Assembly: GCA_017409025.1 (NCBI GenBank)
Contig: JAFQTN010000014.1
Span: forward strand, 46,628-110,627
Length of the DNA stretch: 64,000 nt
Source of the DNA: Bacilli bacterium
Lineage (GTDB): Bacteria; Bacillota_I; Bacilli_A; RF39; UBA660
Direction of reading: 5' to 3'
The notes under the pieces were generated by a model. That model ran no database searches, had not been told where the DNA came from, and worked only from the letters and a program-made list of their open reading frames with translations. Within the stretch, counting starts at the first letter, position 1. Each line of letters begins with the position of its first letter. Positions 4,921-52,021 of the stretch are shown here, one piece after another. A program made the translations under genes and the position numbers.

Positions 4921-4947
4921 ATTTAGCCGATTAAGGGGATGGTTTGG

Positions 4948-5742
4948 ATGATAGTAGAAAAAATGCTAAAACTAGGTTTTACTGAAGAACAGATTAATAC
5001 GATTTTAACTAATTATGCTATTTTAAGGTTGAGAAAGAGTAATGTTTCAAAGTTGGTAGGTGAAATGTTAGATTTTTTTAAAAACTATGGATATAGTGAT
5101 GAAGATATAGTTAAAATGAGTAAATTACATCCACAAATATACGGTTATAGTGCTACTAATATAAGTCAAAAAATACTATTTTTAGAGAATCTTGGATATG
5201 CAAAAGTAGAAATAATTAAAATGACAAAAAGTTGTCCTCAAATATTTAGTTTGTCTACAGAAAATATTATAAATAAGTTAGAGGTTATGAAAGGATTAGG
5301 ATATAAAATTTCTAATTTATTAAATATGATTTCTAGATTTCCTCAAATATTAACATTATCTAATGAGTATATAGTAAATAAATTTAATGATTTGATAGGA
5401 TTAGGTTATACGAATAAAGAGGTAATTAAGATAACAATTAAACTGCCACAAATTTGGAGTTTAACAATGGAAAATATTACTACTAAGAAAGAATTTTATG
5501 ATTCTATAGGAATATCTAGTTTTATATTAGTTAAAGCTAATTTACTTATGCAAAGTGTAGAATTATCATATGCAAGATATATGTTTTATATGTCTATAGG
5601 TAAAACAATAGATAGTAATAATTATATGGATATTTTTTGTGGTCAAAAAAGATTTGAAACATTATATGGTAAAACTAATAAAGATTTAATAGAATTATAC
5701 CCATATGATAAAGAAGAAATTCTAAAAAGAATAAAGAAGTAG
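4948..5742 (+). CDS. mTERF-like repeat protein, paralog 1
   Basis: Tandem ~35-aa units LGY[ST]xxE[IV]xKMxxxxPQI[FW]xLSxENI. AAGGGGA RBS favours the ATG at 4948 (track start 4939). C-terminal KKEFYDSIG...SYARYMF module shared with paralogs 2 and 3. Confidence 0.6.
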   Translation: MIVEKMLKLGFTEEQINTILTNYAILRLRKSNVSKLVGEMLDFFKNYGYSDEDIVKMSKLHPQIYGYSATNISQKILFLENLGYAKVEIIKMTKSCPQIFSLSTENIINKLEVMKGLGYKISNLLNMISRFPQILTLSNEYIVNKFNDLIGLGYTNKEVIKITIKLPQIWSLTMENITTKKEFYDSIGISSFILVKANLLMQSVELSYARYMFYMSIGKTIDSNNYMDIFCGQKRFETLYGKTNKDLIELYPYDKEEILKRIKK

Positions 5743-5751
5743 GTGGTTATG

Positions 5752-6960
5752 ATGTTATATGAATATATGTATAGTTTAGGTTATAAGAAAGAGCAAATTG
5801 ATAAAATATTAAATTATTGTGTTAATGTTAGAAGATATCGTATAGATGGATTATATGAAAAGGCAAAAGTAATATTTCCTTATTTTATTAGTTTAGGTTA
5901 TACGAATAAAGAGGTTATTAAAATATCTTTAGAGTGTATATCATTATATACTCGTAGTTTAGATATTATTAAGAGAAAATTTGATTGTCTGTATGAACTT
6001 GGTTATACTAAAGAAGAAGTTATTAGAATGATATATTCATTTCCGAGAATATTTAATTTAAAGAAGGAAACTATTAATAATAAAATATTATTAATTATGA
6101 ATTTAGGTTTTAGTAGAAAAGAAACATTAGACATTATAAAGACAGATCCTGGTATATTGGGATATAGTTTTATTAATCTTAAAAATAAATTTAATTATTT
6201 ATTATCCTTAGGTTATTCTCAAAAAGAATTAATTAAAATGATTAATCAAAATCCAATAATACTGGTTTCTAATAAACCTTCAAAAAGTATAGATGTTATT
6301 TGTAAATTTGGATTTACTCGTGAGAAAGCAATTAAGATGTGTAAAAAGTGTCCTAATCTTATGGTAATAACTGAAGAATATATAAATGAGAAAATTAAGA
6401 ATATGATGGACTTAGGTTATACTTATCCTCAGGTTATTAAAATGCATAATAAGTTTTCTAAGCTTTTTACTTATGGTATAGATAATATTATAGAAAGATT
6501 TAATAAACTTATAGAATTAGGATATAGTAAAAAACAAGTTATTATAATGACGGTAGTTTCACCTGCTATATTTAGTTATAGTATATCTAGTATAGTGAAA
6601 AGAATTGATGATTTAATTAGTTTAGGATTTACAAAGGAAGAAGTAATTAATATGACTGTATCACTTCCGTCATTATATGGATTTAGTATAGATAATATTC
6701 GTGAGAAAAAAGAATTTTATGATTCAATAGGATTAAGTAGATTATTTGTAGTAGATCCTAAACAACTTATTCAAGGTATAAAATTAACTTATGCTAGATA
6801 CATGTTTTTAAAATCAATAGGAATGGATATTGATATGAATAATTATATATTATTATTTTGGGGACAAAAAGCATTTAAATGTATGTTTGGAATAGATAAT
6901 GAGGAAGTTATTCAGCAGTATGGTAATAAAGAAATAGATATTAAAGTTAGGACTAAATAG
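5752..6960 (+). CDS. mTERF-like repeat protein, paralog 2
   Basis: About 9 repeat units, e.g. LGYTKEEVIRMIYSFPRIFNLKKETINNKILLIMN and LGFSRKETLDIIKTDPGILGYSFINLKNKFNYLLS. Start is uncertain (GTG 5743, ATG 5749 or 5752). Confidence 0.6.
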   Translation: MLYEYMYSLGYKKEQIDKILNYCVNVRRYRIDGLYEKAKVIFPYFISLGYTNKEVIKISLECISLYTRSLDIIKRKFDCLYELGYTKEEVIRMIYSFPRIFNLKKETINNKILLIMNLGFSRKETLDIIKTDPGILGYSFINLKNKFNYLLSLGYSQKELIKMINQNPIILVSNKPSKSIDVICKFGFTREKAIKMCKKCPNLMVITEEYINEKIKNMMDLGYTYPQVIKMHNKFSKLFTYGIDNIIERFNKLIELGYSKKQVIIMTVVSPAIFSYSISSIVKRIDDLISLGFTKEEVINMTVSLPSLYGFSIDNIREKKEFYDSIGLSRLFVVDPKQLIQGIKLTYARYMFLKSIGMDIDMNNYILLFWGQKAFKCMFGIDNEEVIQQYGNKEIDIKVRTK

Positions 6961-6969
6961 GTGATATGT

Positions 6970-8079
6970 ATGTTAGTAGAAAAAATGAAAGAATTAGGTT
7001 ATACTGATAGTGATATTGAGAAAATAATTAATCAATATACGGCTGCAAATAATACTAAAAATAATTTGTTTAAGAGACTTGAAGGAAATTATAAAATGCT
7101 TATATCTTTAGGTTTAAGTAGAAATGAAGCTATTAAAATAACTAAAGAATTTCCGTTACTTTTGGCATATTTAGATACTTCTATTGAAAAGAAAATATAT
7201 AATATAAAAGAATTAGGGTATGAAATGAGTGCTATTAAAAAAATGATAATAGCATTTCCTCAAATTTTAAGTTTAGATATTGCTAATATGGAAAAGAAAA
7301 TAGAAGATATGAAAAAAATAGGTTATAGCAATAAGGCGGTATTAAAAATAACTACTGCCTGTCCACATGTATTTGGGTTAAATATTAATAATATTAAAAA
7401 TATGCTAATTAAATTAACAGAATTAGGTTTTAAATATGAAGAGGTATTAAAAATAACTACAAAATATCCTGAAATATTTGGTTTATCTATCGAAAATATC
7501 AGTAAGAAAATAGATGATATGATTACTTTGGGATATAATAGATTATTAGTTATAAAAATGATAAAGATTTATCCTAATATACTAGGTTTAAATATTAATA
7601 ATATGAAAAAGAAATTAAAAGATATGAAAAAATTAGAGTATACTAATAAGGATTTGTTAATTATAACTAGTACATGTCCACAATTATTTGGATATACTAT
7701 TGAAAGAATAAAAAAGAGAATAAACGATATTATGGATTTGGGGTATTCTTATCAAGAAGTAATTAATATGTCTAAAAAATTTCCTCAAATATTTGGTCTT
7801 AGTATTGATGCTATTAAAGTAAAGAAAGAATTTTATGATTCAATTGGGTTAGAAAGGCTGTTTATTGATTATCCAAGAAATTTAATGCAAAGTGTAGAAT
7901 TATCATATGCAAGATATATGTTTTATAAATCTATAGGGATAGAAATAAATAAAGATAATTTTAGAATGTTATTTGAAGATCAAAAAAGATTTAAAAAAAG
8001 GTATAATTATTCTAATGATGATTTAATTAAAATGTATAATTATAATGAAGAAAAAGCTAAAAGTAGGACGTTAGATTAA
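6970..8079 (+). CDS. mTERF-like repeat protein, paralog 3
   Basis: Same repeat (LGYEMSAIKKMIIAFPQILSLDIANMEKKIEDMKK...). AGGTGA RBS favours the ATG at 6970 (track GTG 6961). Confidence 0.6.
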   Translation: MLVEKMKELGYTDSDIEKIINQYTAANNTKNNLFKRLEGNYKMLISLGLSRNEAIKITKEFPLLLAYLDTSIEKKIYNIKELGYEMSAIKKMIIAFPQILSLDIANMEKKIEDMKKIGYSNKAVLKITTACPHVFGLNINNIKNMLIKLTELGFKYEEVLKITTKYPEIFGLSIENISKKIDDMITLGYNRLLVIKMIKIYPNILGLNINNMKKKLKDMKKLEYTNKDLLIITSTCPQLFGYTIERIKKRINDIMDLGYSYQEVINMSKKFPQIFGLSIDAIKVKKEFYDSIGLERLFIDYPRNLMQSVELSYARYMFYKSIGIEINKDNFRMLFEDQKRFKKRYNYSNDDLIKMYNYNEEKAKSRTLD

Positions 8080-8096
8080 TAATATATTATTTAAAT

Positions 8097-8504
8097 GTGG
8101 GTGAAAATGTGGAAGAATTATTTAGTTTAGGTATTAGTGAAGAAGATATGAAAAATATTTTAGAACAAAATTCAAATTTGTTTAATATATCTAGTGATTT
8201 AGTGAAAGAAAAGATAGATATACTTAAATATGTTAATTGCGATCAAAGACATATAAAGAACATTATTGTTAGTAATCCAGAATATTTAGAAAGAGAATCT
8301 AGTGATATACTTAAATTAATTAAATATTTAAAGGATAATGGATTTACACTTTTAAATTTATTGTTTGATTCTAATCCTTATTTTTTAAATTATGATGTTT
8401 TTGAGATAAGAGATTATGTAAATAAAAGAATAGATGATGGATTAGAGTTAGATGATATAGTGGATGAAGTAGAAAATAATCCATATATCATAGATGAAGT
8501 TTAG
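8097..8504 (+). CDS. short mTERF-like repeat protein, paralog 4
   Basis: 135 aa with 3-4 degenerate units (LGISEEDMKNILEQNSNLFNISSDLVKEKIDILK...). Start codon is uncertain. Confidence 0.45.
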   Translation: MGENVEELFSLGISEEDMKNILEQNSNLFNISSDLVKEKIDILKYVNCDQRHIKNIIVSNPEYLERESSDILKLIKYLKDNGFTLLNLLFDSNPYFLNYDVFEIRDYVNKRIDDGLELDDIVDEVENNPYIIDEV

Positions 8505-8609: not shown

Positions 8610-9839
8610 ATGAAAAAATGGTATAAATTAGATAATGTTGGTAAATTTTATGCATCTATTGCGAATGCAAAAGTACCTAAAGTATTTAGATATTCCGTTA
8701 ATTTATTTGAAAATGTTGATGAAAATATATTACAATTAGCATTAAATAAAACAATAGAAATATATCCTAATTTTAATGTTAATTTAAAAAAGGGAATGTT
8801 TTGGTATTATCTAGATGAGACGAATAAGAAAAATAAAGTAACAAAAGAAAATTTACCTATTTGTTTTAAAATATATAATAATTCAGATGATTTTTTATAT
8901 AGGGTTTCATACTATAAAAGAAAAATTAATTTTGAGGTATCTCATATATTATCTGATGGTAGAGGTAGTGTAGAGTTTTTTAAACTATTATTAACAAATT
9001 ATATATCAATTAAATATGATCTTAAAATAGATACTAGTAAGGATAATAAGAGTCAATTAGAGAAAGCAGAAGATAGTTTTGATAAATACTATAAGAAAAT
9101 GAAATTATCTAAAAATAAAAAGACAGAAACATATATATATAAGGGAAAAAAATATCGTAATCAAACAAGATATTTAGAAGCATATATGAATGTATCGGAT
9201 GTTTTAAGTTTAGCACATAAATATAAAACAACTCTAACAGCTTTTTTAGTATCTATATTAATTTATGCACATAGAGATGAATTAAAACTATCAGAATTAA
9301 ATAAAAGTATTAAGATAGATTTGCCGGTAGATTTAAGACCTTATTTTAAATCATATTCATCGATGAATTTTTTTGGTGTAACTACGATTTCTTATAAATT
9401 TAAGAGTAAAGAAGATACATTAGAAGATATTATAAAAGAAGTAAATTTACAGTTTAAAGAACAAATAAATGCTAAGAAAATAGCTGAGAGAGTAAATTTA
9501 ATGGTTTCATTTGAGAAGAATTGGTTTTGTAGATTTGTTCCTATTAATATTAAAAATATCTTTTTAAATATAGCTGATAAAATTGCATCTCAACAAAGTA
9601 CAACTTGTTTATCTAATATTGGAATAATTAAATTAGATAAAGAATTAGAAGATAAAATAGATTCTATTAGTGTTTTAACATCTACGTATGGTTTTCGATT
9701 TACAACATGTACATTTAAAGATAAATTATGTATAGGAATATCAAATAATTATATTAATAATGATATTATTAAGAATTTATGTTGTTATTTATCAGAACAG
9801 GGTATTCAGATAAAAATGAATGTAAGTGAGGTTGGATAA
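8610..9839 (+). CDS. condensation/acyltransferase-like protein with HxxxDG motif
   Basis: EVSHILSDGRGSVEFF contains the H-x3-D-G catalytic motif of the condensation, WS/DGAT and PapA5 acyltransferase superfamily. Size (~410 aa) fits. GGAGGA RBS. Confidence 0.55.
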   Translation: MKKWYKLDNVGKFYASIANAKVPKVFRYSVNLFENVDENILQLALNKTIEIYPNFNVNLKKGMFWYYLDETNKKNKVTKENLPICFKIYNNSDDFLYRVSYYKRKINFEVSHILSDGRGSVEFFKLLLTNYISIKYDLKIDTSKDNKSQLEKAEDSFDKYYKKMKLSKNKKTETYIYKGKKYRNQTRYLEAYMNVSDVLSLAHKYKTTLTAFLVSILIYAHRDELKLSELNKSIKIDLPVDLRPYFKSYSSMNFFGVTTISYKFKSKEDTLEDIIKEVNLQFKEQINAKKIAERVNLMVSFEKNWFCRFVPINIKNIFLNIADKIASQQSTTCLSNIGIIKLDKELEDKIDSISVLTSTYGFRFTTCTFKDKLCIGISNNYINNDIIKNLCCYLSEQGIQIKMNVSEVG

Positions 9840-10495
9840 TGAAAAAGTGTAATAGTTGTAACATAGAATTTAATATTAATGATAAAATATGTCCGTTATG
9901 TCAAAATATATTAATAGGTGAATGTAATGATTTAATGTTTCCTACGAATGCTAGATATAAAACAAATTCATTAATAAAGAAAATAGTTTTGTTTTCGTCA
10001 ATAACAATATTTTTAATATTTGCTTTTATTGAATTTCTTGTAGTTAATAATTTAACAATATCATCATATATAGGAGTTGGATTAATAACTAATTATGTAA
10101 TAATGTCTTTAATATTAAAGAATTATCATAATATATATAAGGTATTTGGGAAATATGGATTAACAATAATAGTGTTATTAATAATATGGTATCTTTTGAT
10201 AAAGAGTCCAGTAATTACTAATTATATAATCCCATCAGTATGTATATTTGAATTATTATTTAATTTTATTGTTGCTTTAATACTTAGAAAGAATTATTCA
10301 ATAAAGTATTCAAGTCAAATAATTATGAATATTTTTTTATTGATTTTACCAATTATATTTGTTTGGTTAAAATTAACTACTAATAATATAATGTCATATA
10401 TATGTTGTTTATTATCAGTAATATCAATAACTGGTTTATTAATATTTTCATATAATGATATTAAGGAAGAATTAAGTAAATTATTTAATGTATAG
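9839..10495 (+). CDS. zinc-ribbon membrane protein
   Basis: N-terminal CNSC...CPLC ribbon followed by ~5 TM helices. Start overlaps the upstream stop (TAATG). Confidence 0.6.
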   Translation: MKKCNSCNIEFNINDKICPLCQNILIGECNDLMFPTNARYKTNSLIKKIVLFSSITIFLIFAFIEFLVVNNLTISSYIGVGLITNYVIMSLILKNYHNIYKVFGKYGLTIIVLLIIWYLLIKSPVITNYIIPSVCIFELLFNFIVALILRKNYSIKYSSQIIMNIFLLILPIIFVWLKLTTNNIMSYICCLLSVISITGLLIFSYNDIKEELSKLFNV

Positions 10496-10517
10496 CCCCA
10501 ATTAAGTTTGGGGTTTT
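10496..10517 (+). terminator. rho-independent terminator
   Basis: CCCCAA / TTGGGG stem followed by TTTT. Confidence 0.65.
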
Positions 10518-10580
10518 AAAATGTTAAAAAATGTGATAAAATATACATCACTCCGAAAAAATATATAAAAGGGTGATAAA

Positions 10581-11909
10581 ATGGAAGAAAAATTAATAGG
10601 AAAATTATATCAAATGGTTATTGAAAAGAAAGAACTTACATATGAGAATTTAATAGAAGAAGGTTTTAGTAATGAAGATATATCTTTGTTAATTTCTAAT
10701 AGGATTATTAGATTAATTGGTGATAATTTGTATCAATTATATAAGGTAGATAGATTTCATCAATATGGAATAAAATTGCTTATTCAAGGAAAAAATATAG
10801 AAGCTACTAAATGTTTTAAAATATGTCATAAATTAATGCCAAATGGAAGAAGAATAAATCTTCAAATGTTAATTTTAGAAGTAATATATGAAAACTATGA
10901 AGGAGCATATCGTATTTATGAGACTATTGAAAATAATAGTATTCCTAAGAATACTTTAGATAATAATTTATATTTATATTTATTAAATTTATTATGTCCT
11001 ATTAAAAAGTATTCTGATAGAGTAAGAGATTTTATGCATGGAGATATTGTATTTGAAAGTGCTACTTGTAATAAAGATGAAAATCAAATAAGAGAGGCTA
11101 TATTTAAAAGTAAATTTGTATATGCTCGTAAATTAGTTAATGATTTAATTTCTAAAAAAATACCAGAATATTCAATTAAAAATGAATTAATAAAAGTATT
11201 ATTAAATAAAGTAATTGAACATGAAAGAAATTATAAAAATAAATTATTAAAATTAGCTCAAGAAGAACAATATAGTGTAATTAATAAAATGCTTTTAGAA
11301 AGAGCAAATACTAAAAGATTAAGTAAATTAGAAAATTATATTTTATTAGTTTCTGGGACAATCATTGAAATATTAAAAACTAAAAAGATTCCAGAGAAAA
11401 GAGAAATAGTTACATATGATATGTACAAAGCATTAATATCTAATAATTTTAAACTTGCACAAGAAATAAACGATGATCATCATACTATATTGGGAACAAA
11501 TAAAGAAGATGATGTTTTACATATTTTATTAATAAAGATTAATGAGATAATTAAGCAAATTGAATTATCTTATGAAGAAGAGAGGAAAATAGAATTAGAT
11601 AAGCAAATAATGTCTTCTGAAGAATTAGCGTACTATATAAAGAGTGAAAATATTTCTTTAGAAGATGCTAGTAAAAAATTAGGAATAATAAAAGAACAAA
11701 TGATTATGATTAGATTGGTGTATATAAGAGATTATTATGTTCTAGGTGATATAGAGTTAGCTGATAAGTTGCTAGAGGAAATAGAGACTAAAGAAAAAAT
11801 AACACCACTAATTAGACTGTTTATTGATAAAATTAAAACTTATAAAGAAATTAAAACTGAAATTAAAGTAAGGAAAAGAATAAAAGAAAATAATGAAGGA
11901 GAAAACTAA
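10581..11909 (+). CDS. wHTH/helical-repeat paralog A (short form)
   Basis: N-terminal EEGFSNEDISLLISNRIIRLIGDNLYQL (AbiEi-like winged helix). Shared internal motifs NNLYLYLL, IIEILKTKKIP and NNFKLAQEIN. Shared C-terminal module EELAYYIKSENISLEDA...IRLVYIRDYY. Confidence 0.55.
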   Translation: MEEKLIGKLYQMVIEKKELTYENLIEEGFSNEDISLLISNRIIRLIGDNLYQLYKVDRFHQYGIKLLIQGKNIEATKCFKICHKLMPNGRRINLQMLILEVIYENYEGAYRIYETIENNSIPKNTLDNNLYLYLLNLLCPIKKYSDRVRDFMHGDIVFESATCNKDENQIREAIFKSKFVYARKLVNDLISKKIPEYSIKNELIKVLLNKVIEHERNYKNKLLKLAQEEQYSVINKMLLERANTKRLSKLENYILLVSGTIIEILKTKKIPEKREIVTYDMYKALISNNFKLAQEINDDHHTILGTNKEDDVLHILLIKINEIIKQIELSYEEERKIELDKQIMSSEELAYYIKSENISLEDASKKLGIIKEQMIMIRLVYIRDYYVLGDIELADKLLEEIETKEKITPLIRLFIDKIKTYKEIKTEIKVRKRIKENNEGEN

Positions 11910-14314
11910 TGGTAACTAGTGAACATTTAGATAAGATTTGTGAATACACATTAAAAGATAGAATAATCACTACTAAAGTATTACATAGTTTTGGATTAAA
12001 TAGTCATGATATAAATAAATTATTAGAACAAAATATATTAAGAAGAGTAAATATAGGTCAATACGAATTAATATCTACTGATACGTTATATGAATATGCG
12101 AATAAGATTCGTAAGGAAAACCCTTATGATTCAATTAAAGGTAATTTATTGGTTTATGAAATGGAACCTAATCATGAATATAATAATTTAAGATTATTAA
12201 CTTTTTATACTAGAAAAAGAAATTATGAAAAGGCTTTCCAGATATTAGACATATTATATCTAAATAATGAAAATGATAAATATAATGATATATACTTATA
12301 TATATTAAGTGCTATGACAGTAGTTCCAGAAAGATATAAAGATAAAGTAAAGAAATTAACTGAAGTTAATTTAAAAACTAAATATTATAGTAGTAATGAA
12401 GACGAAAATGCGATGTTATTTAGAATAACTATTGGTAAATACGTACCGGCAATTTATTCATTAAATAAAACAAAACAATATATTTTAAATGAACATGATG
12501 TAGCACTAAGATTATTGTTATCTGAAGCAATAGAATTAGATAATGAAAATAGTGAATTATTACTTAGATATGCTAAAGAAGAAAGATTTAATGATATTAA
12601 GGAATTATTAACAAGTAAAACTACTGTTAATAAGCAAATGGATTTATATATGTTATATGTAGTAAATACTATTTTGAGTATATTAAAAACAAAAAAATTA
12701 CCTATACAAACTACTCAAAATACGAATAATTTACATAGCGCTATTTATACAAATAATTTTGAATTAGCATATAAACTGAATACAGAATATTTAACAAAAT
12801 ATAATCTTAATCTAGTAAATCCATTAACTATTTTATTAAATAAGGTTAATGAACTTATAAATAAAATAAGAAAAGAACAAAGTATAGAATCAAATAAAGA
12901 AGAAAGTATAAATATAGAAGATGAGAATGTTACATTATCTAGTTTAATTATTGAATTATTACATAATAATATTGAAATTTTTACTGGGTTATTAAAAAAA
13001 TATTTAAAAGAAAAACAATTAGAAGAATATGAATTTCTAATAATGAAATTAGTAAAAATAGATATAATAAACAATGATAGTAGTTATTTAAAGACAATAA
13101 GTGTTTTAAGCAAATTAGATAATTCTGTATATAATTTTGATGTATCTTATTATGTTAGACAATTCTATCAAGAATTATCAAATATAGAAATAGCTAAGAT
13201 TTATTTTGAAATAATATCTAAATATTATCCAGAATCTACGGTTATTATAGCTAATTTAAAAAATACTTTAGAAAATGAGATTGCTAAGAATAATATTTCT
13301 AATGAGGAAACTGAAAATGTAGTTTCTTTAGAAAATAAAGAACAAGATGAAAAAGAAATTAATGAGTTAAATGAATTAGTATTAAGAAGAATACATGAAG
13401 CTAAGAGTAATAATCAAACTATAGTTATTTTTGAAAATCAATCAGTAAACATGAGGAGAATAATTTATTCAATATTGGGTAGTAGTCATGGTTTGGATAT
13501 GTTTACTATAGGAGAAGAGCCTAAAACAGTTGTAGTAAGAATTTTAAATATTAAACAAGAAGAAATAATATATAAAGAATATCTTCAAGATTTATTTATA
13601 AATGCAAAAATAAAAAATTATCAAGAATGTATTCGTATAGGGAATATATTATTAAAATCTAAAGGATTTAAACCTTTAGGTGCAAAAGATCCAAGACCGG
13701 TATTTGATATTGTTGGACAATCTTATTTAAAATTAAATAAAATAGAAGAAGCAATTATATTTTTGACTATTGTAACTGAATTAAGTAAAACGATGGGAGA
13801 TTCTAAGAAAGATCGTAGTGTTTTAATTAATATGTTAAAAGAAAGATTGAATAAGACTACTGAGAAAAATTCTAGTGAAAATGAATTTAAAGAAGATATA
13901 GTAGTTAATGAAATAGTTTCTGAAAAGGTAGAACCTATTGCTGAGGGATCAATTGAAGAAGCAAAACCAGTAGAAAATATTCAGATAACTGAAATAGAAC
14001 AAGAAGAAAATAAACCTAGGGAAATAAAAGATTTAGAAGAAATTGCTTACTTTATAAAAGAGACTAATATATCTTTAGAAGATGCTAAGAATAGTTATAA
14101 TTTAACTGATGAAGATATCTTAATGATTAGATTAATATATGTAAGAGATTATTATGTAGATGGAATGTATTCTTTAGGTGATTCTAAATTAAAAGAAATA
14201 GAAAAAATTCAAAATAAGACACCAAGAGTAATCATATTTATTAAAGAATTAAAGATTAATAAAAGATTTTATAAAGATAGATTAGAATTCCATACTAAAA
14301 AAAGACAAAAATAA
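11909..14314 (+). CDS. wHTH/helical-repeat/TPR paralog B
   Basis: 801 aa, start overlaps the upstream stop. Same N- and C-terminal modules plus a central insert and a TPR-like segment (YQECIRIGNILL...GQSYLKLNKIEEAI). Confidence 0.55.
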   Translation: MVTSEHLDKICEYTLKDRIITTKVLHSFGLNSHDINKLLEQNILRRVNIGQYELISTDTLYEYANKIRKENPYDSIKGNLLVYEMEPNHEYNNLRLLTFYTRKRNYEKAFQILDILYLNNENDKYNDIYLYILSAMTVVPERYKDKVKKLTEVNLKTKYYSSNEDENAMLFRITIGKYVPAIYSLNKTKQYILNEHDVALRLLLSEAIELDNENSELLLRYAKEERFNDIKELLTSKTTVNKQMDLYMLYVVNTILSILKTKKLPIQTTQNTNNLHSAIYTNNFELAYKLNTEYLTKYNLNLVNPLTILLNKVNELINKIRKEQSIESNKEESINIEDENVTLSSLIIELLHNNIEIFTGLLKKYLKEKQLEEYEFLIMKLVKIDIINNDSSYLKTISVLSKLDNSVYNFDVSYYVRQFYQELSNIEIAKIYFEIISKYYPESTVIIANLKNTLENEIAKNNISNEETENVVSLENKEQDEKEINELNELVLRRIHEAKSNNQTIVIFENQSVNMRRIIYSILGSSHGLDMFTIGEEPKTVVVRILNIKQEEIIYKEYLQDLFINAKIKNYQECIRIGNILLKSKGFKPLGAKDPRPVFDIVGQSYLKLNKIEEAIIFLTIVTELSKTMGDSKKDRSVLINMLKERLNKTTEKNSSENEFKEDIVVNEIVSEKVEPIAEGSIEEAKPVENIQITEIEQEENKPREIKDLEEIAYFIKETNISLEDAKNSYNLTDEDILMIRLIYVRDYYVDGMYSLGDSKLKEIEKIQNKTPRVIIFIKELKINKRFYKDRLEFHTKKRQK

Positions 14315-14333
14315 AATAATTTAAGGGGAATTT

Positions 14334-16313
14334 ATGGAAGAAAGGGAAAAATTACTAGAATTATTAAATAGTTTTCTTTTAGAAAATAATATTCAAAAAG
14401 TATATGAAATATTTAAATTGTTAGATCAAACTGATAATTTAGAATTAAAAAAAGAAAATAATTTATATTTATATTTGTTAAGTTTTATAGATGAAGTGCC
14501 AAGTGAATATATAAATAGAGTACGTAGTATTAAATATGAAGATTTACTTATAAATTCTGATAGTTGTAGATATACAGAAATAAGCGTGCAAAATAGAATT
14601 AGAATGAGTATTTTTAGAGCAAAATTTCATCAAACAAAAGAAATGATTGAAAATACTTCAAAAGATGATTTTGTAAATGGAATAGAAAGAGAACTAATTC
14701 TGACGTTAGTAAGAATGGCAAATGAAAAAGAAATTATTTTAAGAAAACGTATTGAATATTTAACTAAAAATAAAAAGTATGAAGAACTAGTATCATATTT
14801 AGAAAATCGAAATAGAATAAGAAAATTAAATTTATATGAAGCATATATTTATGCTATAACAGCATCAATAATAAGGATAATGAAAACTAATAAAATTCCT
14901 AAAGTGTTAGATCAAAATCCAGATGATATAAAAAAAGCAATAATGGGATATAACTTTCAGATGGCATTAATTTTTAATAGAAGAGATATAGCATTAAAAT
15001 ATGAAGATAGTAAGTATGTTATAAATTTATTATTAGTTGAAATAAATAAATTAATAGATAATATAATAAGAGATGCTAAACAAAAAATAGAAGCTGAAAA
15101 GTCGAAAATAACAACTATCTTAAAAAAAATTGATGAAGAATTATTAAAAGGAAATATAGAAGAAGCAACTGATAGAATTAAAGAATACTTAAAGTATATA
15201 AATAAAGAAAATTATCTTTATTTAATAGAAAATTTAATTAAAGTATCTATATTAAATAATGATTCATCATATCATGAAACTATTTCTTTTCTAAATTCAA
15301 TGAATAGTTCAAATTATCAATTTGATATGAAATATTTCTATAGTCAATTTCATAATAGTATAAATAGAAATAAATTAGATATAGCAGAAATATATTTAAA
15401 TATAATAAAGCATTATCAACCAGAATTTAAAGAAGACATGACTTTAGAACAGTTAGAAAAAATATCATCTGATTTAGAACATAATAAAGAGGAATTATCA
15501 TATTTAATGAATGAATTAAATGTCTTAAAAGATGGAAACGAATATATGAAAATTATAAAGGGAATTCCACAAAAGAGAAGAAAGATTTTAATAAGATTAG
15601 CTGGTAGTATCGAAGAATTGTCTGTTGGTAGTGCTGGGGTAAAAGAACCTAAAAATTTAGTAATAAGACGTATAAATAAAGAATTAAAAACAGATAATGA
15701 AAGAAAATTAATAGATGATGCCTTAAAACTATATCTTAGTAAAGAATACAATATTGCTCTTATGATATATTTAAGATTATTAACTAGTATGGAATTAGCA
15801 AATAGCAAAATATGTGAAATGATAGGTTTATGTTATCTTCATTTAAATGAATTAGATGAATCTTTAAAATATTTAAGATATTCTAAACAATTACAGAAAA
15901 AGTTTTTAACAAATAGATTTGGTATTGATAAAATAATAGATTTATTAGAACAAGAACCTAATGATGGTGTAAAACAAAAAATAGATACATTATTAACTAA
16001 GTATGATGATGAAGTAATTAATTTTAATATTCAAAAATTAGAAGAAATAGCATCTTATATGAAAGAGAATAATATGACTTTTGAAGAAGGTATAGAAAAG
16101 TTTGAGTTAGTACCAATGCAAGTATTGATAATAAAATTAATTTATGCTAAATATTACTATATGGAGGGTATGACATTAAGTGCTGATAAATTATTACAGG
16201 AAGTAGAAAAAACTAAAAATAAATCACAGCCAGTAGTTACACTTTTAAATGAAGTAAGAGAAAAGAAAATCTTTTATCAAAATCAAAAAGATGGATATAC
16301 ACGTAAAAGATAA
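14334..16313 (+). CDS. helical-repeat/TPR paralog C
   Basis: 659 aa. It shares NNLYLYLLS, IIRIMKTNKIP, the NNDSSY module, the TPR-like segment and the C-terminal module. The N-terminal wHTH is not evident. Confidence 0.55.
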   Translation: MEEREKLLELLNSFLLENNIQKVYEIFKLLDQTDNLELKKENNLYLYLLSFIDEVPSEYINRVRSIKYEDLLINSDSCRYTEISVQNRIRMSIFRAKFHQTKEMIENTSKDDFVNGIERELILTLVRMANEKEIILRKRIEYLTKNKKYEELVSYLENRNRIRKLNLYEAYIYAITASIIRIMKTNKIPKVLDQNPDDIKKAIMGYNFQMALIFNRRDIALKYEDSKYVINLLLVEINKLIDNIIRDAKQKIEAEKSKITTILKKIDEELLKGNIEEATDRIKEYLKYINKENYLYLIENLIKVSILNNDSSYHETISFLNSMNSSNYQFDMKYFYSQFHNSINRNKLDIAEIYLNIIKHYQPEFKEDMTLEQLEKISSDLEHNKEELSYLMNELNVLKDGNEYMKIIKGIPQKRRKILIRLAGSIEELSVGSAGVKEPKNLVIRRINKELKTDNERKLIDDALKLYLSKEYNIALMIYLRLLTSMELANSKICEMIGLCYLHLNELDESLKYLRYSKQLQKKFLTNRFGIDKIIDLLEQEPNDGVKQKIDTLLTKYDDEVINFNIQKLEEIASYMKENNMTFEEGIEKFELVPMQVLIIKLIYAKYYYMEGMTLSADKLLQEVEKTKNKSQPVVTLLNEVREKKIFYQNQKDGYTRKR

Positions 16314-16355
16314 AAACAATAGTAAGAAAATTATAATTTAATCTAGGAGGAATAT

Positions 16356-18650
16356 ATGATAACGAATGAATTATTAGATTTCATTTATGCTAAAAATCTA
16401 AATAGGGAAACAATTACAGCTAAAGAACTACTAAAACTAGGTTTAAATTATAGTGATATAAGCAAATTAGTAGAGAATAATGTGATAAAAAGAATAAAAA
16501 GAGGAATATATGGATTAGATACATATGATGATTTATTTAATTATGTAATATATTTAATAAATCAAGAAAAATATTATAAAGCATATAAAATATTATTAAA
16601 ATGTCATGAAGAAAATCCCGATAACTTAACAGTTTTAGAATATTTATTTTTATGTAGTATTAATACAAAAACAAGTACTGAAATAAAATGGAATATATTA
16701 GAAAAAATAATTAAAATAAGTACAGATAAAAGAAAAAATCTAAATAATGTGTATTTATATTTTTTAACATATAAATATCTTGGTGTTAAAAAAGAATATA
16801 TTGAAATTATTAAATCATTGAAATATGGAGATTTAAAATTGTTTGATGATACTTCAATTAATTTACAAAATTCAACAGCTTATAATATAGAAAAAGTAAT
16901 AGATATCATTGGGAATATTGAAGAAAATGAGTATTTAACAACTTATCAGAAAAAAATTATTAAAGAACTTATGCAGAGGTCTTTAAAAGTAAAAGAAATA
17001 CTTAATAAAAAACTTTTACAATTAGTAGAAGAAGAAAATTATCAAAAAATAATAGATATTTTAAAGCCAAGAAAAGGATATATTCATTTAGATTTTGAAC
17101 ACGAGGTAATTTTATTGTTAGCAAACAAAATAATCGAAATAATATCTAAAGATCAAATACCTAGTCCAATTGTTAAAGAAAATTGTAGAAAAAATATGCT
17201 TGCAATGATAGAAAATAATTATTTTGAAAAAGCCTATAGTTTTAGTTCTCAGTGCTTAAAAACAAGTAATAAAGTAGAGGATATAATAATAAATTTAATG
17301 TTAAACAAAATCATAAAAATTACATCAAAAGAAAGTCAAAGTAAAAGAATTAACGAAGTATTTAGATTTTCTCTTCGTAACCCTAATGTCGAAAATATTA
17401 TTTTAAATTTAATAGATCAAAATATAGAAGGTGCAATAACAGAAACGAAAAACTATTTAAGACAATTAGGTGAAGAACAATATGAATATTTAGTACTTAA
17501 TTTATTTGATATATATTATAAAGATGGTGAAAATAATTATCAAAACTTAATTATAATATTAACAGAAATTAGTCAACATGAATATGTTTATAATATAACA
17601 ACATTTTTAGAATTATTTTATAAAAGTCTAAATTCAAATAAAATAGAAGAAGCAGAAACATATATGAAGATAATAGAAAAATATACTCCTAAGGTAGTTA
17701 ATATTATTGGTAGTCTAGAAAAAGATATCGAAAAAGCAAAAAATAGAACAAATGAAGAAAAACAATTTATCAAAAATTATTTATTAGCTAAAGTATCAAA
17801 GATGAAAGAAAATAACATATCAGCAATCATTCTTGATCCGGTTATGCCACATAGTTTAAGGACTACTATATATAAAACTATAAAATGTAGTCCAATTAAA
17901 GAATTAAGAGCCTTTAGTATTGGTGAAGAACCAAAATATATAGTATTAAGATATTTAAATCCAAATAATAATGATAAATTATATCAACAACCTGATTATC
18001 AAGAATTATATGTAAAGAAACAATATCAAGAATGTATAGATATAATTAAAAGTTTATTAGAAAATCCTCGATACGGTGGTTATAATGCAGCGATATATGC
18101 TTATTTAGGATTATCATATTATCATACTAATAATTTAGAAGAAGCTATTAAATATATAAGAATTGCCAATGGGTTAAACAAAGAAACTAATCTTATATAT
18201 GAAGAGGCATATGATTTTGAAGAGTTACTATCACAAATGAATATACAATTTAAAAATACGGAAGTTAGTCCTGAAGACGAAACATTTCAAATGTTAGTAA
18301 CTAATGCGTTAAGAAGAAGTTCAATAAATATAACTTCTAGAAAAGAAAAAAATATATATCAAGAATTAGAAGAATTTGCTTATTATCTAAAAGAAGAAAA
18401 GATTAATTTAAGTGAAGCTTATTCTAAATACTATCTTTCTGAAGAGGATATTCAAATAATAACTTTAATATATGTAAAAGATTATTATACAGTAGGTATG
18501 TATAAAGAAGGGGATTCGTTATTACATCAAGTAGAAAAGAATAAAAATAAAACAGCATATGTAAGGGAATTAATTGATGAAACAAGAAAAAATAAACTAT
18601 TTTATAAGCATAGAATAGGAATATATACACGTAAGAAAATACTAAATTAA
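16356..18650 (+). CDS. wHTH/helical-repeat/TPR paralog D
   Basis: 764 aa. ITAKELLKLGLNYSDISKLVENNVIKRIKRGIYGL wHTH. TPR-like YQECIDIIKSLL...LGLSYYHTNNLEEAI. C-terminal EEFAYYLKEEKINLSEA...ITLIYVKDYY. Confidence 0.55.
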   Translation: MITNELLDFIYAKNLNRETITAKELLKLGLNYSDISKLVENNVIKRIKRGIYGLDTYDDLFNYVIYLINQEKYYKAYKILLKCHEENPDNLTVLEYLFLCSINTKTSTEIKWNILEKIIKISTDKRKNLNNVYLYFLTYKYLGVKKEYIEIIKSLKYGDLKLFDDTSINLQNSTAYNIEKVIDIIGNIEENEYLTTYQKKIIKELMQRSLKVKEILNKKLLQLVEEENYQKIIDILKPRKGYIHLDFEHEVILLLANKIIEIISKDQIPSPIVKENCRKNMLAMIENNYFEKAYSFSSQCLKTSNKVEDIIINLMLNKIIKITSKESQSKRINEVFRFSLRNPNVENIILNLIDQNIEGAITETKNYLRQLGEEQYEYLVLNLFDIYYKDGENNYQNLIIILTEISQHEYVYNITTFLELFYKSLNSNKIEEAETYMKIIEKYTPKVVNIIGSLEKDIEKAKNRTNEEKQFIKNYLLAKVSKMKENNISAIILDPVMPHSLRTTIYKTIKCSPIKELRAFSIGEEPKYIVLRYLNPNNNDKLYQQPDYQELYVKKQYQECIDIIKSLLENPRYGGYNAAIYAYLGLSYYHTNNLEEAIKYIRIANGLNKETNLIYEEAYDFEELLSQMNIQFKNTEVSPEDETFQMLVTNALRRSSINITSRKEKNIYQELEEFAYYLKEEKINLSEAYSKYYLSEEDIQIITLIYVKDYYTVGMYKEGDSLLHQVEKNKNKTAYVRELIDETRKNKLFYKHRIGIYTRKKILN

Positions 18651-18680
18651 ATGTAAATATTTAGTATTTTTTCTTTTTTC
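18637..18680 (+). terminator. weak AU-rich hairpin plus T-run
   Basis: AAATACTAAAT (18637-18647) pairs with ATTTAGTATTT (18659-18669), then a T-rich tract. It overlaps the stop codon. Confidence 0.35.
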
Positions 18681-18738
18681 TTGACACCACAATTAATATA
18701 AGAGTATAATTAATATATAAAATAGGATGGTGTATCAA

Positions 18739-20568
18739 ATGTTTGCTAATATAAAAAAGAAGAAACTATTTCTTATAGTATCAATTTTAACCTTGGTATT
18801 TATGATATCTGGTGGAACATATGCTTATTGGTATTGGTCTAATATTGGTGATGCTAAAAACTTAGTAATTGATGTTGCAGGTTTAAGAGATAGTGATATT
18901 ATGTATAAAGAAGGAGATTCTTACTTTGTTGGTGATTTTCAACCTACGAATTCTTTTTGTGAGAGTATAAATACTACGATTTCATTTAAGAAAGCAGACC
19001 GTGTAAAAGATTATCCGTTATATGCTACAATCCACATGGATATTAATTCTATTGGTAGTAATATAACTGCATCAGATGATGTTTATTGGATTGTTACAAA
19101 AGGTGATAATACTATAACTTGTGATAATGGTTTATCTTCTGATTCAGTATTAAACTATGGAATATTTCAAGGAATTGAGTCGGGCGATGCATTGAATATA
19201 TTAGAAAATATTGAAGTTACTACTGAAGAACAAACATTTACTATATGGATATGGATTGATTATATGGGTGATACGATATCTTCTATATCAGGTGAGATTA
19301 TTGATTCAAACATATGGACCGAAATTACAATGTATAATGTAATTGACACTGGTAATCCACCTGCTCTTGATAAAGGTATGATACCGGTAACAATAGCAAA
19401 TGATGGAAAAGTAACGACAGTATCTGCTAGTGATCCTAGTTGGTATAATTATAATAATAAAGAATGGGCTAATGTGGTATTAGTAAATGAGAATGCTACA
19501 TCTGGTGTAGCAAAATCACATTCAAGAAGTTATTATTTATCTAACTTATCTGATAATGTAGAAGTAGCAGAAGAAGATATACTAGCATATTATGTATGGA
19601 TTCCTAGGTATAAATATAGAATATCATCTTCAACAGCAACTTCAATTGATATTGAGTTTGAAAATTCATTTGATGCTAGAAATTTAGGAAATGCAACTAC
19701 AACGTATTATACGCATCCAGCATTTTGGTGGGATGATGATAATGATGGTGTAACCGATATTGGAGAAATGTTGTCAGGAATTTGGGTTGCAAAATTTAAA
19801 GAAAGTGGAACAAGTAGTCAACCATTAGTTTTACCTAATAAACAATTTTTAGATAGTAAAAATGTTGGAGATAGTTTTAGTACTTCTTTAATGTATGCTG
19901 GCGGAACTTTAACTGGAAAAGATGTTAATTTTGTTGGTAATAGTTTTTATGGATTAAGTTCAAGAGTTGATAGTCATTTAACGAAAAATAGTGAATGGGG
20001 AGCTATTGCATATTTAACTCGTTCTGAGTATGGAATAAATAAAGCGCTTATCTCTAATGGTACTGTTGGCGATTTAAGTGGAGAACGTGATTTTGCTAAT
20101 TCTCTAACTGGTTGTGGTGAAGTGAATGAAGAAAACAATTGTTCGAAAATATATGGACAATTATCATCTTATCCACAAAGTACAACAGGAAATATAAGTG
20201 GCATATTTGATATGTCTGGGGTTTGGGAAATTGTAATGGGAAATTATAATAATATGATTATTGATAGCATTAATATGTCATCTAATTTTGAACAAATGCC
20301 TGAGATAAAATATTATGATTTATATACTTCTAAAAGCATGGAAACTGCATGTAATGGTGGAATATGTTATGGACATGCATTATCAGAAACACTTCATTTT
20401 ACTGATGGAGATAATTATTTCTTCGATGATAATTATGGGGATGATACTTATTATACTCCATGGTTAGTTCGTAGTGATTTGTTTGATGTTTTTAGTGTTG
20501 CTAATGATGTTATTGATAATTGGTTTACTAGTGGTGTCTCTTCCCGTTCTATTTTGATTACTAGATAG
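18739..20568 (+). CDS. secreted protein with TasA/SipW-type signal peptide
   Basis: KKKKLFLIVSILTLVFMISGGTYAYW resembles the SipW-cognate signal class (..GGT.AYF/W). The RBS favours the ATG at 18739 (track start 18727). The mature protein has no recognised enzymatic motif. Confidence 0.55.
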   Translation: MFANIKKKKLFLIVSILTLVFMISGGTYAYWYWSNIGDAKNLVIDVAGLRDSDIMYKEGDSYFVGDFQPTNSFCESINTTISFKKADRVKDYPLYATIHMDINSIGSNITASDDVYWIVTKGDNTITCDNGLSSDSVLNYGIFQGIESGDALNILENIEVTTEEQTFTIWIWIDYMGDTISSISGEIIDSNIWTEITMYNVIDTGNPPALDKGMIPVTIANDGKVTTVSASDPSWYNYNNKEWANVVLVNENATSGVAKSHSRSYYLSNLSDNVEVAEEDILAYYVWIPRYKYRISSSTATSIDIEFENSFDARNLGNATTTYYTHPAFWWDDDNDGVTDIGEMLSGIWVAKFKESGTSSQPLVLPNKQFLDSKNVGDSFSTSLMYAGGTLTGKDVNFVGNSFYGLSSRVDSHLTKNSEWGAIAYLTRSEYGINKALISNGTVGDLSGERDFANSLTGCGEVNEENNCSKIYGQLSSYPQSTTGNISGIFDMSGVWEIVMGNYNNMIIDSINMSSNFEQMPEIKYYDLYTSKSMETACNGGICYGHALSETLHFTDGDNYFFDDNYGDDTYYTPWLVRSDLFDVFSVANDVIDNWFTSGVSSRSILITR

Positions 20569-32352: not shown

Positions 32353-32429
32353 TGGCGTCCTCAAGAGGATTTGAACCTCCGACCCCCGCCTTAGGAGGGC
32401 GGTGCTCTATCCAGCTGAGCTATGAGGAC
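32353..32429 (-). tRNA. tRNA-Arg (anticodon CCU)
   Basis: Reverse complement GTCCTCATAGCTCAGCTGGATAGAGCACCGCCCTCCTAAGGCGGGGGTCGGAGGTTCAAATCCTCTTGAGGACGCCA folds as a cloverleaf. It has a 7-bp acceptor stem, GCTC/GAGC D stem, CCGCC/GGCGG anticodon stem with loop CTCCTAA, a T arm with TTCAAAT and an encoded CCA. Confidence 0.9.
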
Positions 32430-51826: not shown

Positions 51827-51831
51827 TAAAA

Positions 51832-52009
51832 TACCTGAAGGATGCGACAGCTATAATTTAAAACCGACAAAGATATATTTAGGGAGTCTAAAATTTTGTA
51901 TGTGTTGAATGCTTAATCATTTTATTAAGAATCCTGATTACAAAATGGTGATTACCCACCTGTGTGTTAACGCGCGGGTTTTATCTACTTAGTATCGGTT
52001 CTTTGGGTA
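51832..52009 (+). ncRNA. ssrS: candidate 6S RNA (SsrS)
   Basis: ~180-nt non-coding interval with its own promoter. The ends pair, TACCTGAAGGAT (51832-51843) with GTTCTTTGGGTA (51998-52009, including G-U pairs). Internal helices are TAAAACC/GGTTTTA and ATTTTGTA/TACAAAAT, with an apical hairpin CTTAAT/ATTAAG, giving a rod with internal loops. It lies directly upstream of a tcdA/yrvM-like gene. Confidence 0.45.
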
Positions 52010-52021
52010 ACATTTAGGCAA

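Follow-up and report, generated by a model that had tools for sequence, protein, structure and literature searches.

A four-gene array encodes proteins that combine a winged helix, TPRs, and an R3H domain

A 64,000-nt stretch of a Bacilli bacterium genome (GenBank assembly GCA_017409025.1, contig JAFQTN010000014.1, positions 46,628 to 110,627 of the forward strand; hereafter the window) carries four same-strand open reading frames (ORFs) of 442, 801, 659, and 764 aa in tight succession. We found that these four genes are paralogs from a large protein family whose full architecture is, according to profile searches and a predicted structure, an AbiEi-type winged helix followed by two tetratricopeptide repeats (TPRs), a helical solenoid of ~300 aa, an R3H domain, two more TPRs, and a family-specific C-terminal helical module of ~85 aa. 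Each of these domain types is known, but no characterisation exists for their combination, for the C-terminal module, or for the family as a whole. Our leading, still tentative proposal is that the proteins serve as modular TPR-containing regulators or scaffolds that bind nucleic acids, and that the long and short paralogs may assemble together. The positions and sizes of the genes, as well as the start/stop overlap at 11909, had been given in an earlier reading of the same DNA made from its letters and ORF translations (the sequence-only reading), and they match the ORFs found here exactly.

The paralogy of the four proteins was assessed by alignment and pairwise BLASTP. With compositional adjustment, the 801- and 764-aa proteins align over their full length with 29% identity (E=3e-59), and the 442- and 659-aa proteins are also related (E=9e-19), with their C-terminal module matched separately (E=4e-11). 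All six paralog pairs score between 61 and 202 bits. Since 100 residue shuffles gave at most 28 bits, this similarity is not an artefact of a low-complexity composition rich in K, E, and N, a concern that the sequence-only reading had raised against its own claim of four collinear paralogs; that claim therefore holds. The same reading had asked whether the whole proteins might be homologous to a characterised family, and none was matched.

The winged helix, announced earlier for three of the four proteins, indeed occupies the N terminus of the 442-, 801-, and 764-aa proteins, and the 659-aa protein has none. In the 764-aa copy, the Pfam model AbiEi_4 (PF13338) is matched at the borderline (E=1.8e-5, 25.1 bits versus a cut-off of 25), besides weak TPR matches. 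PADLOC AbiEi models match the proteins at the N terminus only, over positions ~1 to 75 of ~200. When 60 family members were compared with Pfam, TPR_2 was detected in 43, AbiEi_4 in 19 (E<=1e-3), and R3H in 16 (best E=2e-11). Profile searches against the PDB placed canonical TPR pairs at profile positions ~55 to 126 and ~578 to 650, i.e., behind the winged helix and behind the R3H domain, with E values down to 1e-59, which supports the TPR-like and helical repeats suspected in the sequence-only reading. An AlphaFold2 model of the 764-aa protein, built on a 60-sequence alignment (mean pLDDT 85.3), shows a winged-helix topology of three helices and two strands at residues 4 to 54, helical repeats at 57 to 485, helices at 548 to 633, and a five-helix C-terminal module at 663 to 745. 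The C-terminal module, first noticed as a shared segment of ~80 aa, occurs in all four proteins and is their most conserved stretch at the DNA level (repeat families D1, D6, and D8). A profile restricted to it found a weak TPR-like match to its second half in the PDB and no Pfam relative. The mean conservation scores across domains are 0.51 for the winged helix, 0.50 for the C-terminal module, 0.47 for helical region C, and 0.46 for the first TPR segment (TPR-A).

The absence of any recognisable enzymatic motif, also remarked on before, was borne out even in much longer relatives: no enzymatic domain appeared among the Pfam hits of the 60 members or of eight long members (1053 to 1346 aa), and the members of 1000 to 1350 aa are internal duplications of the same modules. 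For the window proteins, PHROGs, PADLOC, and NCBIfam yielded nothing beyond the winged helix. A Foldseek search of the PDB with the whole model returned only generic TPR scaffolds (APC/C subunits, Ski3, Ctr9, Naa15, and IFT-A) at TM scores of 0.10 to 0.17, and no relative of the whole 764-aa model was found among viral structures. The proteins have neither a signal peptide nor a hydrophobic segment and are thus presumably cytoplasmic.

The insert between the TPR arrays is predicted to be an R3H domain with a partly maintained motif

The sequence-only reading had described a small, probably alpha/beta insert in the three long forms. The insert is present, but its nature had been missed: profiles and the predicted fold indicate that it is an R3H domain. 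At the position homologous to the window insert, a relative (P0002) matches the Pfam R3H model (PF01424) with E=1.6e-10. The window copies by themselves give no Pfam R3H match, and an R3H-only HMM built from members outside the window subclade matches the 764-aa protein with E=1.1e-5, the 801-aa protein with E=5.6e-5, and the 659-aa protein with E=0.42; the R3H-like module of the last was assigned by collinearity only. In the AlphaFold2 model of the 764-aa protein, the region folds as strand-helix-strand-strand (E490-492, H499-511, E517-522, and E528-533), with block-mean pLDDT values of ~85 to 94 over residues 481 to 540. A further motif that had been ascribed to all three long forms, NNDSSY, is exact in the 801- and 659-aa proteins, but the 764-aa protein reads KDGENNY instead.

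The three window copies that have the module all keep the Arg of the R-x-x-x-H motif, but the His has given way to Tyr in two of them (764 and 801 aa) and to Ile in the third (659 aa). Across 102 family members, the motif reads R...H in 24 and R...Y/F in 13, and a further 9 have only the Arg, 11 only the His or Tyr, and 45 neither residue. The motif thus appears to be maintained in a subset of the family, where 37 of the 102 members keep Arg together with His, Tyr, or Phe, and lost in many others. The R3H domain of KhpB accommodates a single nucleotide, with the Arg bound to a phosphate and the His stacked on a base, and it requires a second domain that binds nucleic acids (PMC12408800). By analogy, Tyr in place of His is compatible with stacking, and the KhpB mode of binding fits both the R...Y motif of two window copies and the pairing of R3H with a winged helix. 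The genome has one canonical R3H gene elsewhere (a 203-aa frame on contig C30, Pfam R3H E=8.5e-20), which is probably khpB/jag.

The family is large, restricted in its distribution, and anciently duplicated

A word-index search had given two relatives of the window proteins. When 1.84 billion cluster representatives were searched exhaustively with HMMER, 1770 proteins passed a threshold of E<=1e-3 and 738 clusters one of E<=1e-30; most are full-length proteins of 750 to 860 aa. None is a characterised member, and no Pfam family or structure exists for the family. The sole database name that we found for a relative, given by NCBI, derives from the winged helix (residues 1 to 55) and is misleading in that it points to a toxin-antitoxin function. 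Relatives also encode parts of the architecture as separate genes: the N-terminal half alone (positions 1 to 480, 457 to 500 aa), the C-terminal half alone (R3H, TPRs, and C-terminal module, 282 to 416 aa), and a short form that joins positions 1 to 340 to the C-terminal module (437 to 461 aa).

Whole-genome searches detected the family in 31 of 201 genomes of the host GTDB family (27 of 172 high-quality genomes; 29 of 196 genera), i.e., ~16%. It was not found outside the host family in class-level and phylum-level samples of ~400 genomes each, in which two candidates were scored per genome, so that this distribution is a floor. The C-terminal module alone, which the sequence-only reading had proposed to look for as an independent domain in other genomes, was likewise absent outside the host family in 299 phylum genomes. 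According to RNase R, the neighbours of the host are uncultured gut "Bacilli/Tenericutes" metagenome-assembled genomes (MAGs) from human, rumen, rabbit, and mouse samples, near Clostridium sp. CAG:914, CAG:302, and Ca. Faecisoma; this is presumably the RF39-type lineage.

A tree of 102 members places the four window paralogs in one clade with four proteins from other samples (support 100). Within it, the 764-aa protein pairs with P0046 (support 99), the 659-aa protein with P0085 (95), and the 801-aa protein with P0020/P0040 (88), while the 442-aa protein is the sister of the 659-P0085 pair (93). Because three of the four window paralogs pair with an ortholog from elsewhere, the duplications are, on this tree, older than the species, and the copies diverged anciently. 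Consistent orders are seen in other arrays. One contig (L046) encodes a short form of 461 aa and, behind it, a long form of 845 aa, in the same order as genes 1 and 2 of the window; its 461-aa gene, which was left out of the tree, has the architecture and array position of the 442-aa paralog with 36% protein identity. In another locus (L045), the ortholog of the 764-aa gene has short forms on its flanks. No fifth copy was found when a profile of the four proteins was run on the 1.28-Mb, 96%-complete genome.

Two of the four window copies are reduced. Paralog 1 is without helical region C, the R3H domain, and the second TPR segment (TPR-D), and paralog 3 begins at family position ~90, without the winged helix and the first TPR. 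Since P0085 (754 aa), the sister of paralog 3, still matches the family profile from position 1, the N-terminal loss in paralog 3 appears to be lineage specific.

The array is predicted to be a single operon with a candidate operator

The four genes look like a transcription unit of their own (Table 1). This prediction follows from the upstream terminator-like hairpin and candidate promoter, the tight packing of the genes, the hairpin at the downstream end, and the independent promoter of the next gene. The stop and start codons of genes 1 and 2 overlap as TAATG (11907 to 11911) behind a GAAGGAG ribosome-binding site, and the sequence thus indicates that paralog 2 is translationally coupled to paralog 1. 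Genes 2 and 3 are 19 nt apart and genes 3 and 4 are 42 nt apart, with a ribosome-binding site at each. The operon spans 8.07 kb, or 0.63% of this reduced genome.

Table 1. Features of the four-paralog array and its borders (window positions)
Feature	Positions	Strand	Composition or basis
Terminator-like hairpin CCCCAA-ttaagt-TTGGGG, then TTTT	10497..10521	+	Read from sequence; closes the condensation-like/DUF6320 gene pair
Candidate operon promoter: TTTAAA, 16 nt, TGATAAAAT extended -10	10515..10542	+	Consensus scan and sequence
Dyad GTGAT-n11-ATCAC across the -10 box	10533-10553	+	Read from sequence
Paralog 1, 442 aa, short form	10581..11909	+	Winged helix 10581-10745, TPR-A, helical region B, C-terminal module 11613-11846
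Paralog 2, 801 aa, full architecture	11909..14314	+	Winged helix 11909-12076, R3H 13412-13549 (R-x-x-x-Y), TPR-D 13613-13792, C-terminal module 14030-14281
Paralog 3, 659 aa	14334..16313	+	R3H-like module 15537-15677, TPR-D 15741-15902, C-terminal module 16035-16286
Paralog 4, 764 aa, full architecture	16356..18650	+	Winged helix 16356-16523, TPR-A ~16521-16835, helical B/C ~16941-17690
Paralog 4, C-terminal half		+	R3H 17814-17960 (R502...Y506), TPR-D 18018-18185, C-terminal module 18363-18614
AT-rich terminator-like hairpin (AAATACTAAAT...ATTTAGTATTT), then TTTTCTTTTTT	18641..18680	+	Read from sequence; operon end
TTGACA-18-TATAAT promoter of the 613-aa secreted-protein gene	18681-18710	+	Consensus scan; perfect, right after the operon-end hairpin

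The region upstream of the array is conserved in the orthologous array on L046. The 90 nt preceding gene 1 align with the upstream region of the L046 ortholog over long exact runs, e.g., GGGTTTTAAAATGT, and the layout of a hairpin plus TTTTAAAATGT is present there as well. The dyad over the -10 box reads GTGAT/ATCAC in the window and TGGT/ACCA in L046, i.e., its arms have changed and their complementarity has been kept. Promoter and dyad have thus been retained between the two arrays despite the 36% identity of the proteins encoded behind them. AbiEi antitoxins use their winged helix to bind inverted repeats in their own promoter and thereby autoregulate (PMC3985639, PMC7319586), and this analogy hints that the dyad might be a putative autoregulatory operator for the AbiEi-type winged helix. 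As a separate observation, the 10-mer GTGATAAAAT occurs twice within 50 nt, in the -10 box (10533 to 10542) and at the ribosome-binding site and start of gene 1 (10573 to 10582). The window contains 3 copies of it, where 0.86 would be expected, and a count of 3 is reached in 9 of 100 shuffles.

No conserved neighbour accompanies the family

Clustering of the genes surrounding family members over 19 loci revealed no recurrent neighbour, most neighbours being housekeeping genes, and the loci of relatives are not syntenic with the window. The function of the family therefore looks autonomous. The sequence-only reading had drawn attention to the secreted protein with a TasA-type signal encoded directly downstream of the array. 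This 613-aa protein (18727 to 20568) has a SipW/TasA-class signal (…GGTYAYW) and no Pfam family. Its family has 10 matches in this genome (in the window and on contigs C1, C22, C33, and C35) and is found in 97 of 201 host-family genomes, with up to ~9 to 10 matches per genome. It occurs in 16 of the 31 genomes that carry the winged-helix/TPR/R3H family versus 97 of 201 overall, which amounts to no association. With its own perfect promoter after the operon-end hairpin and no co-occurrence, the link to the array is coincidental. In another genome of the same genus (G010, contigs C1 and C3), all six of the listed copies of the 613-aa family have exactly one in-frame TAG inside the match, which may be a trivial overrun of the alignment at the N terminus or a recurrent feature.

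Other genes and RNAs around the array were noted in passing. Upstream of it lies a translationally coupled gene pair (8610 to 10495), in which one gene encodes a condensation-like protein with a weak match to PapA_C and the other a polytopic DUF6320 membrane protein with a zinc ribbon (Pfam E=5.9e-19). Further upstream, within 4939 to 8504, two genes (6961 to 8079 and 8097 to 8504) code for bacterial proteins with mTERF repeats (Pfam mTERF E=4.5e-39 and 1.7e-9). The only RNAs at the Rfam gathering level in the window are 6S RNA (51829 to 52013, plus strand, 69.7 bits) and one tRNA (32356 to 32429, minus strand). In a relative's locus (L039, GCA_022800535.1), a 333-aa protein consisting only of TPRs (9006 to 10007) overlaps the start of an 851-aa family member, behind a phage-type integrase, and a weak Tad4-like gene follows; this TPR-only protein does not match the family HMM.

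Proposed function and alternative explanations

In the tentative scheme of a modular nucleic-acid-binding regulator or scaffold, which draws on sequence, the structural model, and analogy, the N-terminal half (winged helix and TPRs) would act as a one-component regulator. Its winged helix would bind duplex DNA, and one possible site is the conserved dyad that overlaps the -10 box of the same operon. In the C-terminal half, the R3H domain would clamp one nucleotide of single-stranded RNA or DNA, with its Arg contacting the phosphate and the Tyr in place of His stacking on the base, and the TPR solenoids would bind a protein partner or ligand. The C-terminal module, kept in all four paralogs, even in the truncated one, would probably mediate assembly, so that full-length copies could function in mixed complexes with the short form that has no R3H and with the form that has no winged helix.

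Several findings weigh against this scheme. The winged helix is not basic (family median net charge +0.5; -4 in the 442-aa copy), much of the family has a degenerate R3H motif (neither residue in 45 of 102 members; R...I in the 659-aa copy), and no R3H module of the window reaches the Pfam model by itself. The dyad is backed by two sequences only, in AT-rich DNA. The family is missing from ~84% of related genomes and is thus dispensable. Assembly through the C-terminal module, the second half of which is weakly TPR-like, is pure inference.

The first two of these points would suit proteins that are purely protein-protein scaffolds or adaptors, serving for instance in complex assembly or chaperoning, with the winged helix and R3H domain vestigial or repurposed for protein binding. 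The bulk of each protein is a TPR-like solenoid for which Foldseek offers nothing but generic TPR scaffolds, the winged helix is near neutral, and 45 of the 102 members lack both motif residues. Against this stand the conservation scores, which are highest for the winged helix and the C-terminal module, and the absence of a conserved neighbour pointing to a client complex. Moreover, the Arg and the His or Tyr of the R3H motif co-vary (37 members with the pair versus 9 with Arg only and 11 with His or Tyr only), which speaks for selection to keep the motif functional in a large part of the family. We consider a pure scaffold rather unlikely. The eukaryotic scaffolds that resemble the model (Ski3, Ctr9, Naa15, and APC/C) are long TPR solenoids that organise RNA- or ribosome-associated complexes, but at TM scores of 0.10 to 0.17 the likeness is that of generic repeats and has no bearing on homology of function. 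Nucleic acid binding could also be directed at transcripts. As KhpB/Jag-like post-transcriptional regulators, the proteins would bind RNA through the R3H domain and helical repeats, and the target of the winged helix would be RNA or a partner instead of promoter DNA. The R3H proteins that have been characterised in bacteria bind RNA globally (KhpB; PMC12408800, PMC10117727), proteins comprising only the C-terminal half exist without any helix-turn-helix (HTH), and some single-copy members adjoin miaA/rsmE (L041) or rpsL-rpsG-fusA-tuf (L043). Like KhpB/Jag/EloR, the window proteins would be bacterial cytoplasmic proteins in which R3H cooperates with a second nucleic-acid-binding domain (PMC12408800), but their R3H domain lies between TPR arrays and has Tyr or Ile for His, and Pfam detected no Jag_N or KH domain in the 60 members, nor any other RNA-binding domain. 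Neighbourhoods with translation or RNA-modification genes are not conserved over the 19 loci, the genome already has its canonical R3H gene, and the AbiEi-type winged helices characterised in the papers that we consulted bind DNA (PMC3985639, PMC7319586). On balance, we regard a purely RNA-directed role as unlikely.

The sequence-only reading had likened the proteins to RRNPP-type quorum-sensing regulators, in which an HTH binds DNA and a TPR groove receives a secreted, re-imported peptide. Rap and Rgg regulators undergo paralog expansion, which the array resembles, and the order of an N-terminal HTH followed by a TPR-type sensor is shared with Rap, Rgg, NprR, PlcR, and PrgX; relatives that consist of the N-terminal half alone are similar to these in size and layout. 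Nevertheless, the analogy fails on the type of HTH, which is a winged helix and not of the XRE type, and on the absence of a free peptide gene: every ORF of 20 to 60 aa in the region where the suggested short secreted-peptide ORFs were sought, including all ATG ORFs of 20 to 44 aa in 10400 to 18800, lies inside the large genes. The full-length family proteins (750 to 860 aa versus ~280 to 450 aa in RRNPP regulators) are 2 to 3 times larger and contain an R3H domain, and no RRNPP model of Pfam or NCBIfam is matched. Such a role is thus very improbable, and membership of the group is largely refuted by the missing XRE (HTH_3) domain, the missing adjacent pro-peptide gene, and the extra R3H and C-terminal modules. 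Still further from the evidence is an AbiE-type toxin-antitoxin, anti-phage defence, or mobile-element function, which we rate as hardly credible. It could invoke the NCBI name of a relative, the PADLOC AbiEi matches at the N terminus, and the integrase and weak Tad4-like gene adjoining the relative in L039. The window proteins do share with AbiEi antitoxins an N-terminal winged helix-turn-helix of ~55 aa from the same Pfam family, but only the first ~60 to 75 of the ~200 AbiEi model positions are matched, ~700 aa follow the winged helix, and neither the window locus nor the loci of relatives have an AbiEii (DUF1814 nucleotidyltransferase) nearby. PADLOC and PHROGs gave no further hits, the comparison with viral structures gave no relatives, and the neighbours are mostly housekeeping genes. 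The only abiEi-abiEii pair of the genome is a bicistron of 201 and 275 aa with adjoining stop and start on contig C1 (115698 to 117130; L140 698 to 2130, minus strand), and its AbiEii is the only PF08843 match in the genome (E=3.3e-16). Membership of the AbiE family is refuted, as the AbiEi C-terminal antitoxicity domain is missing from the window proteins, Pfam matched neither AbiEi_1 nor AbiEi_3, and there is no adjacent AbiEii.

Large, multidomain cytoplasmic regulators in which an HTH is joined to long TPR arrays are otherwise represented by the SARP/AfsR and MalT types (HTH, STAND ATPase, and TPRs). The window proteins belong to another winged-helix family, and no NB-ARC, AAA, or other NTPase domain was seen among the Pfam hits of the 60 members or the eight long members. 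Within the proposal of a modular nucleic-acid-binding regulator or scaffold, a more specific idea, which we consider doubtful, is that the family represents an unrecognised class of bacterial regulator in which one polypeptide, or a heteromer of long and short forms, couples promoter recognition by the winged helix to single-strand capture by R3H. The captured strand would be that of the open complex or the nascent transcript, the TPR solenoids would serve as the input for a signal or partner, and the paralogs would be joined via the C-terminal module, in a family specific to gut Bacilli with reduced genomes.

The well-characterised bacterial R3H proteins that we found in the literature are of the KhpB/Jag type; for a bacterial R3H domain, to be flanked by TPR arrays and joined to a winged helix would be a new setting. 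Hundreds of diverged clusters of the family are present in gut and rumen metagenomes with no studied member. Now that the architecture is defined, these proteins can be annotated correctly, and they offer a concrete entry into the gene regulation of an uncultured lineage with high abundance in the guts of humans and animals.

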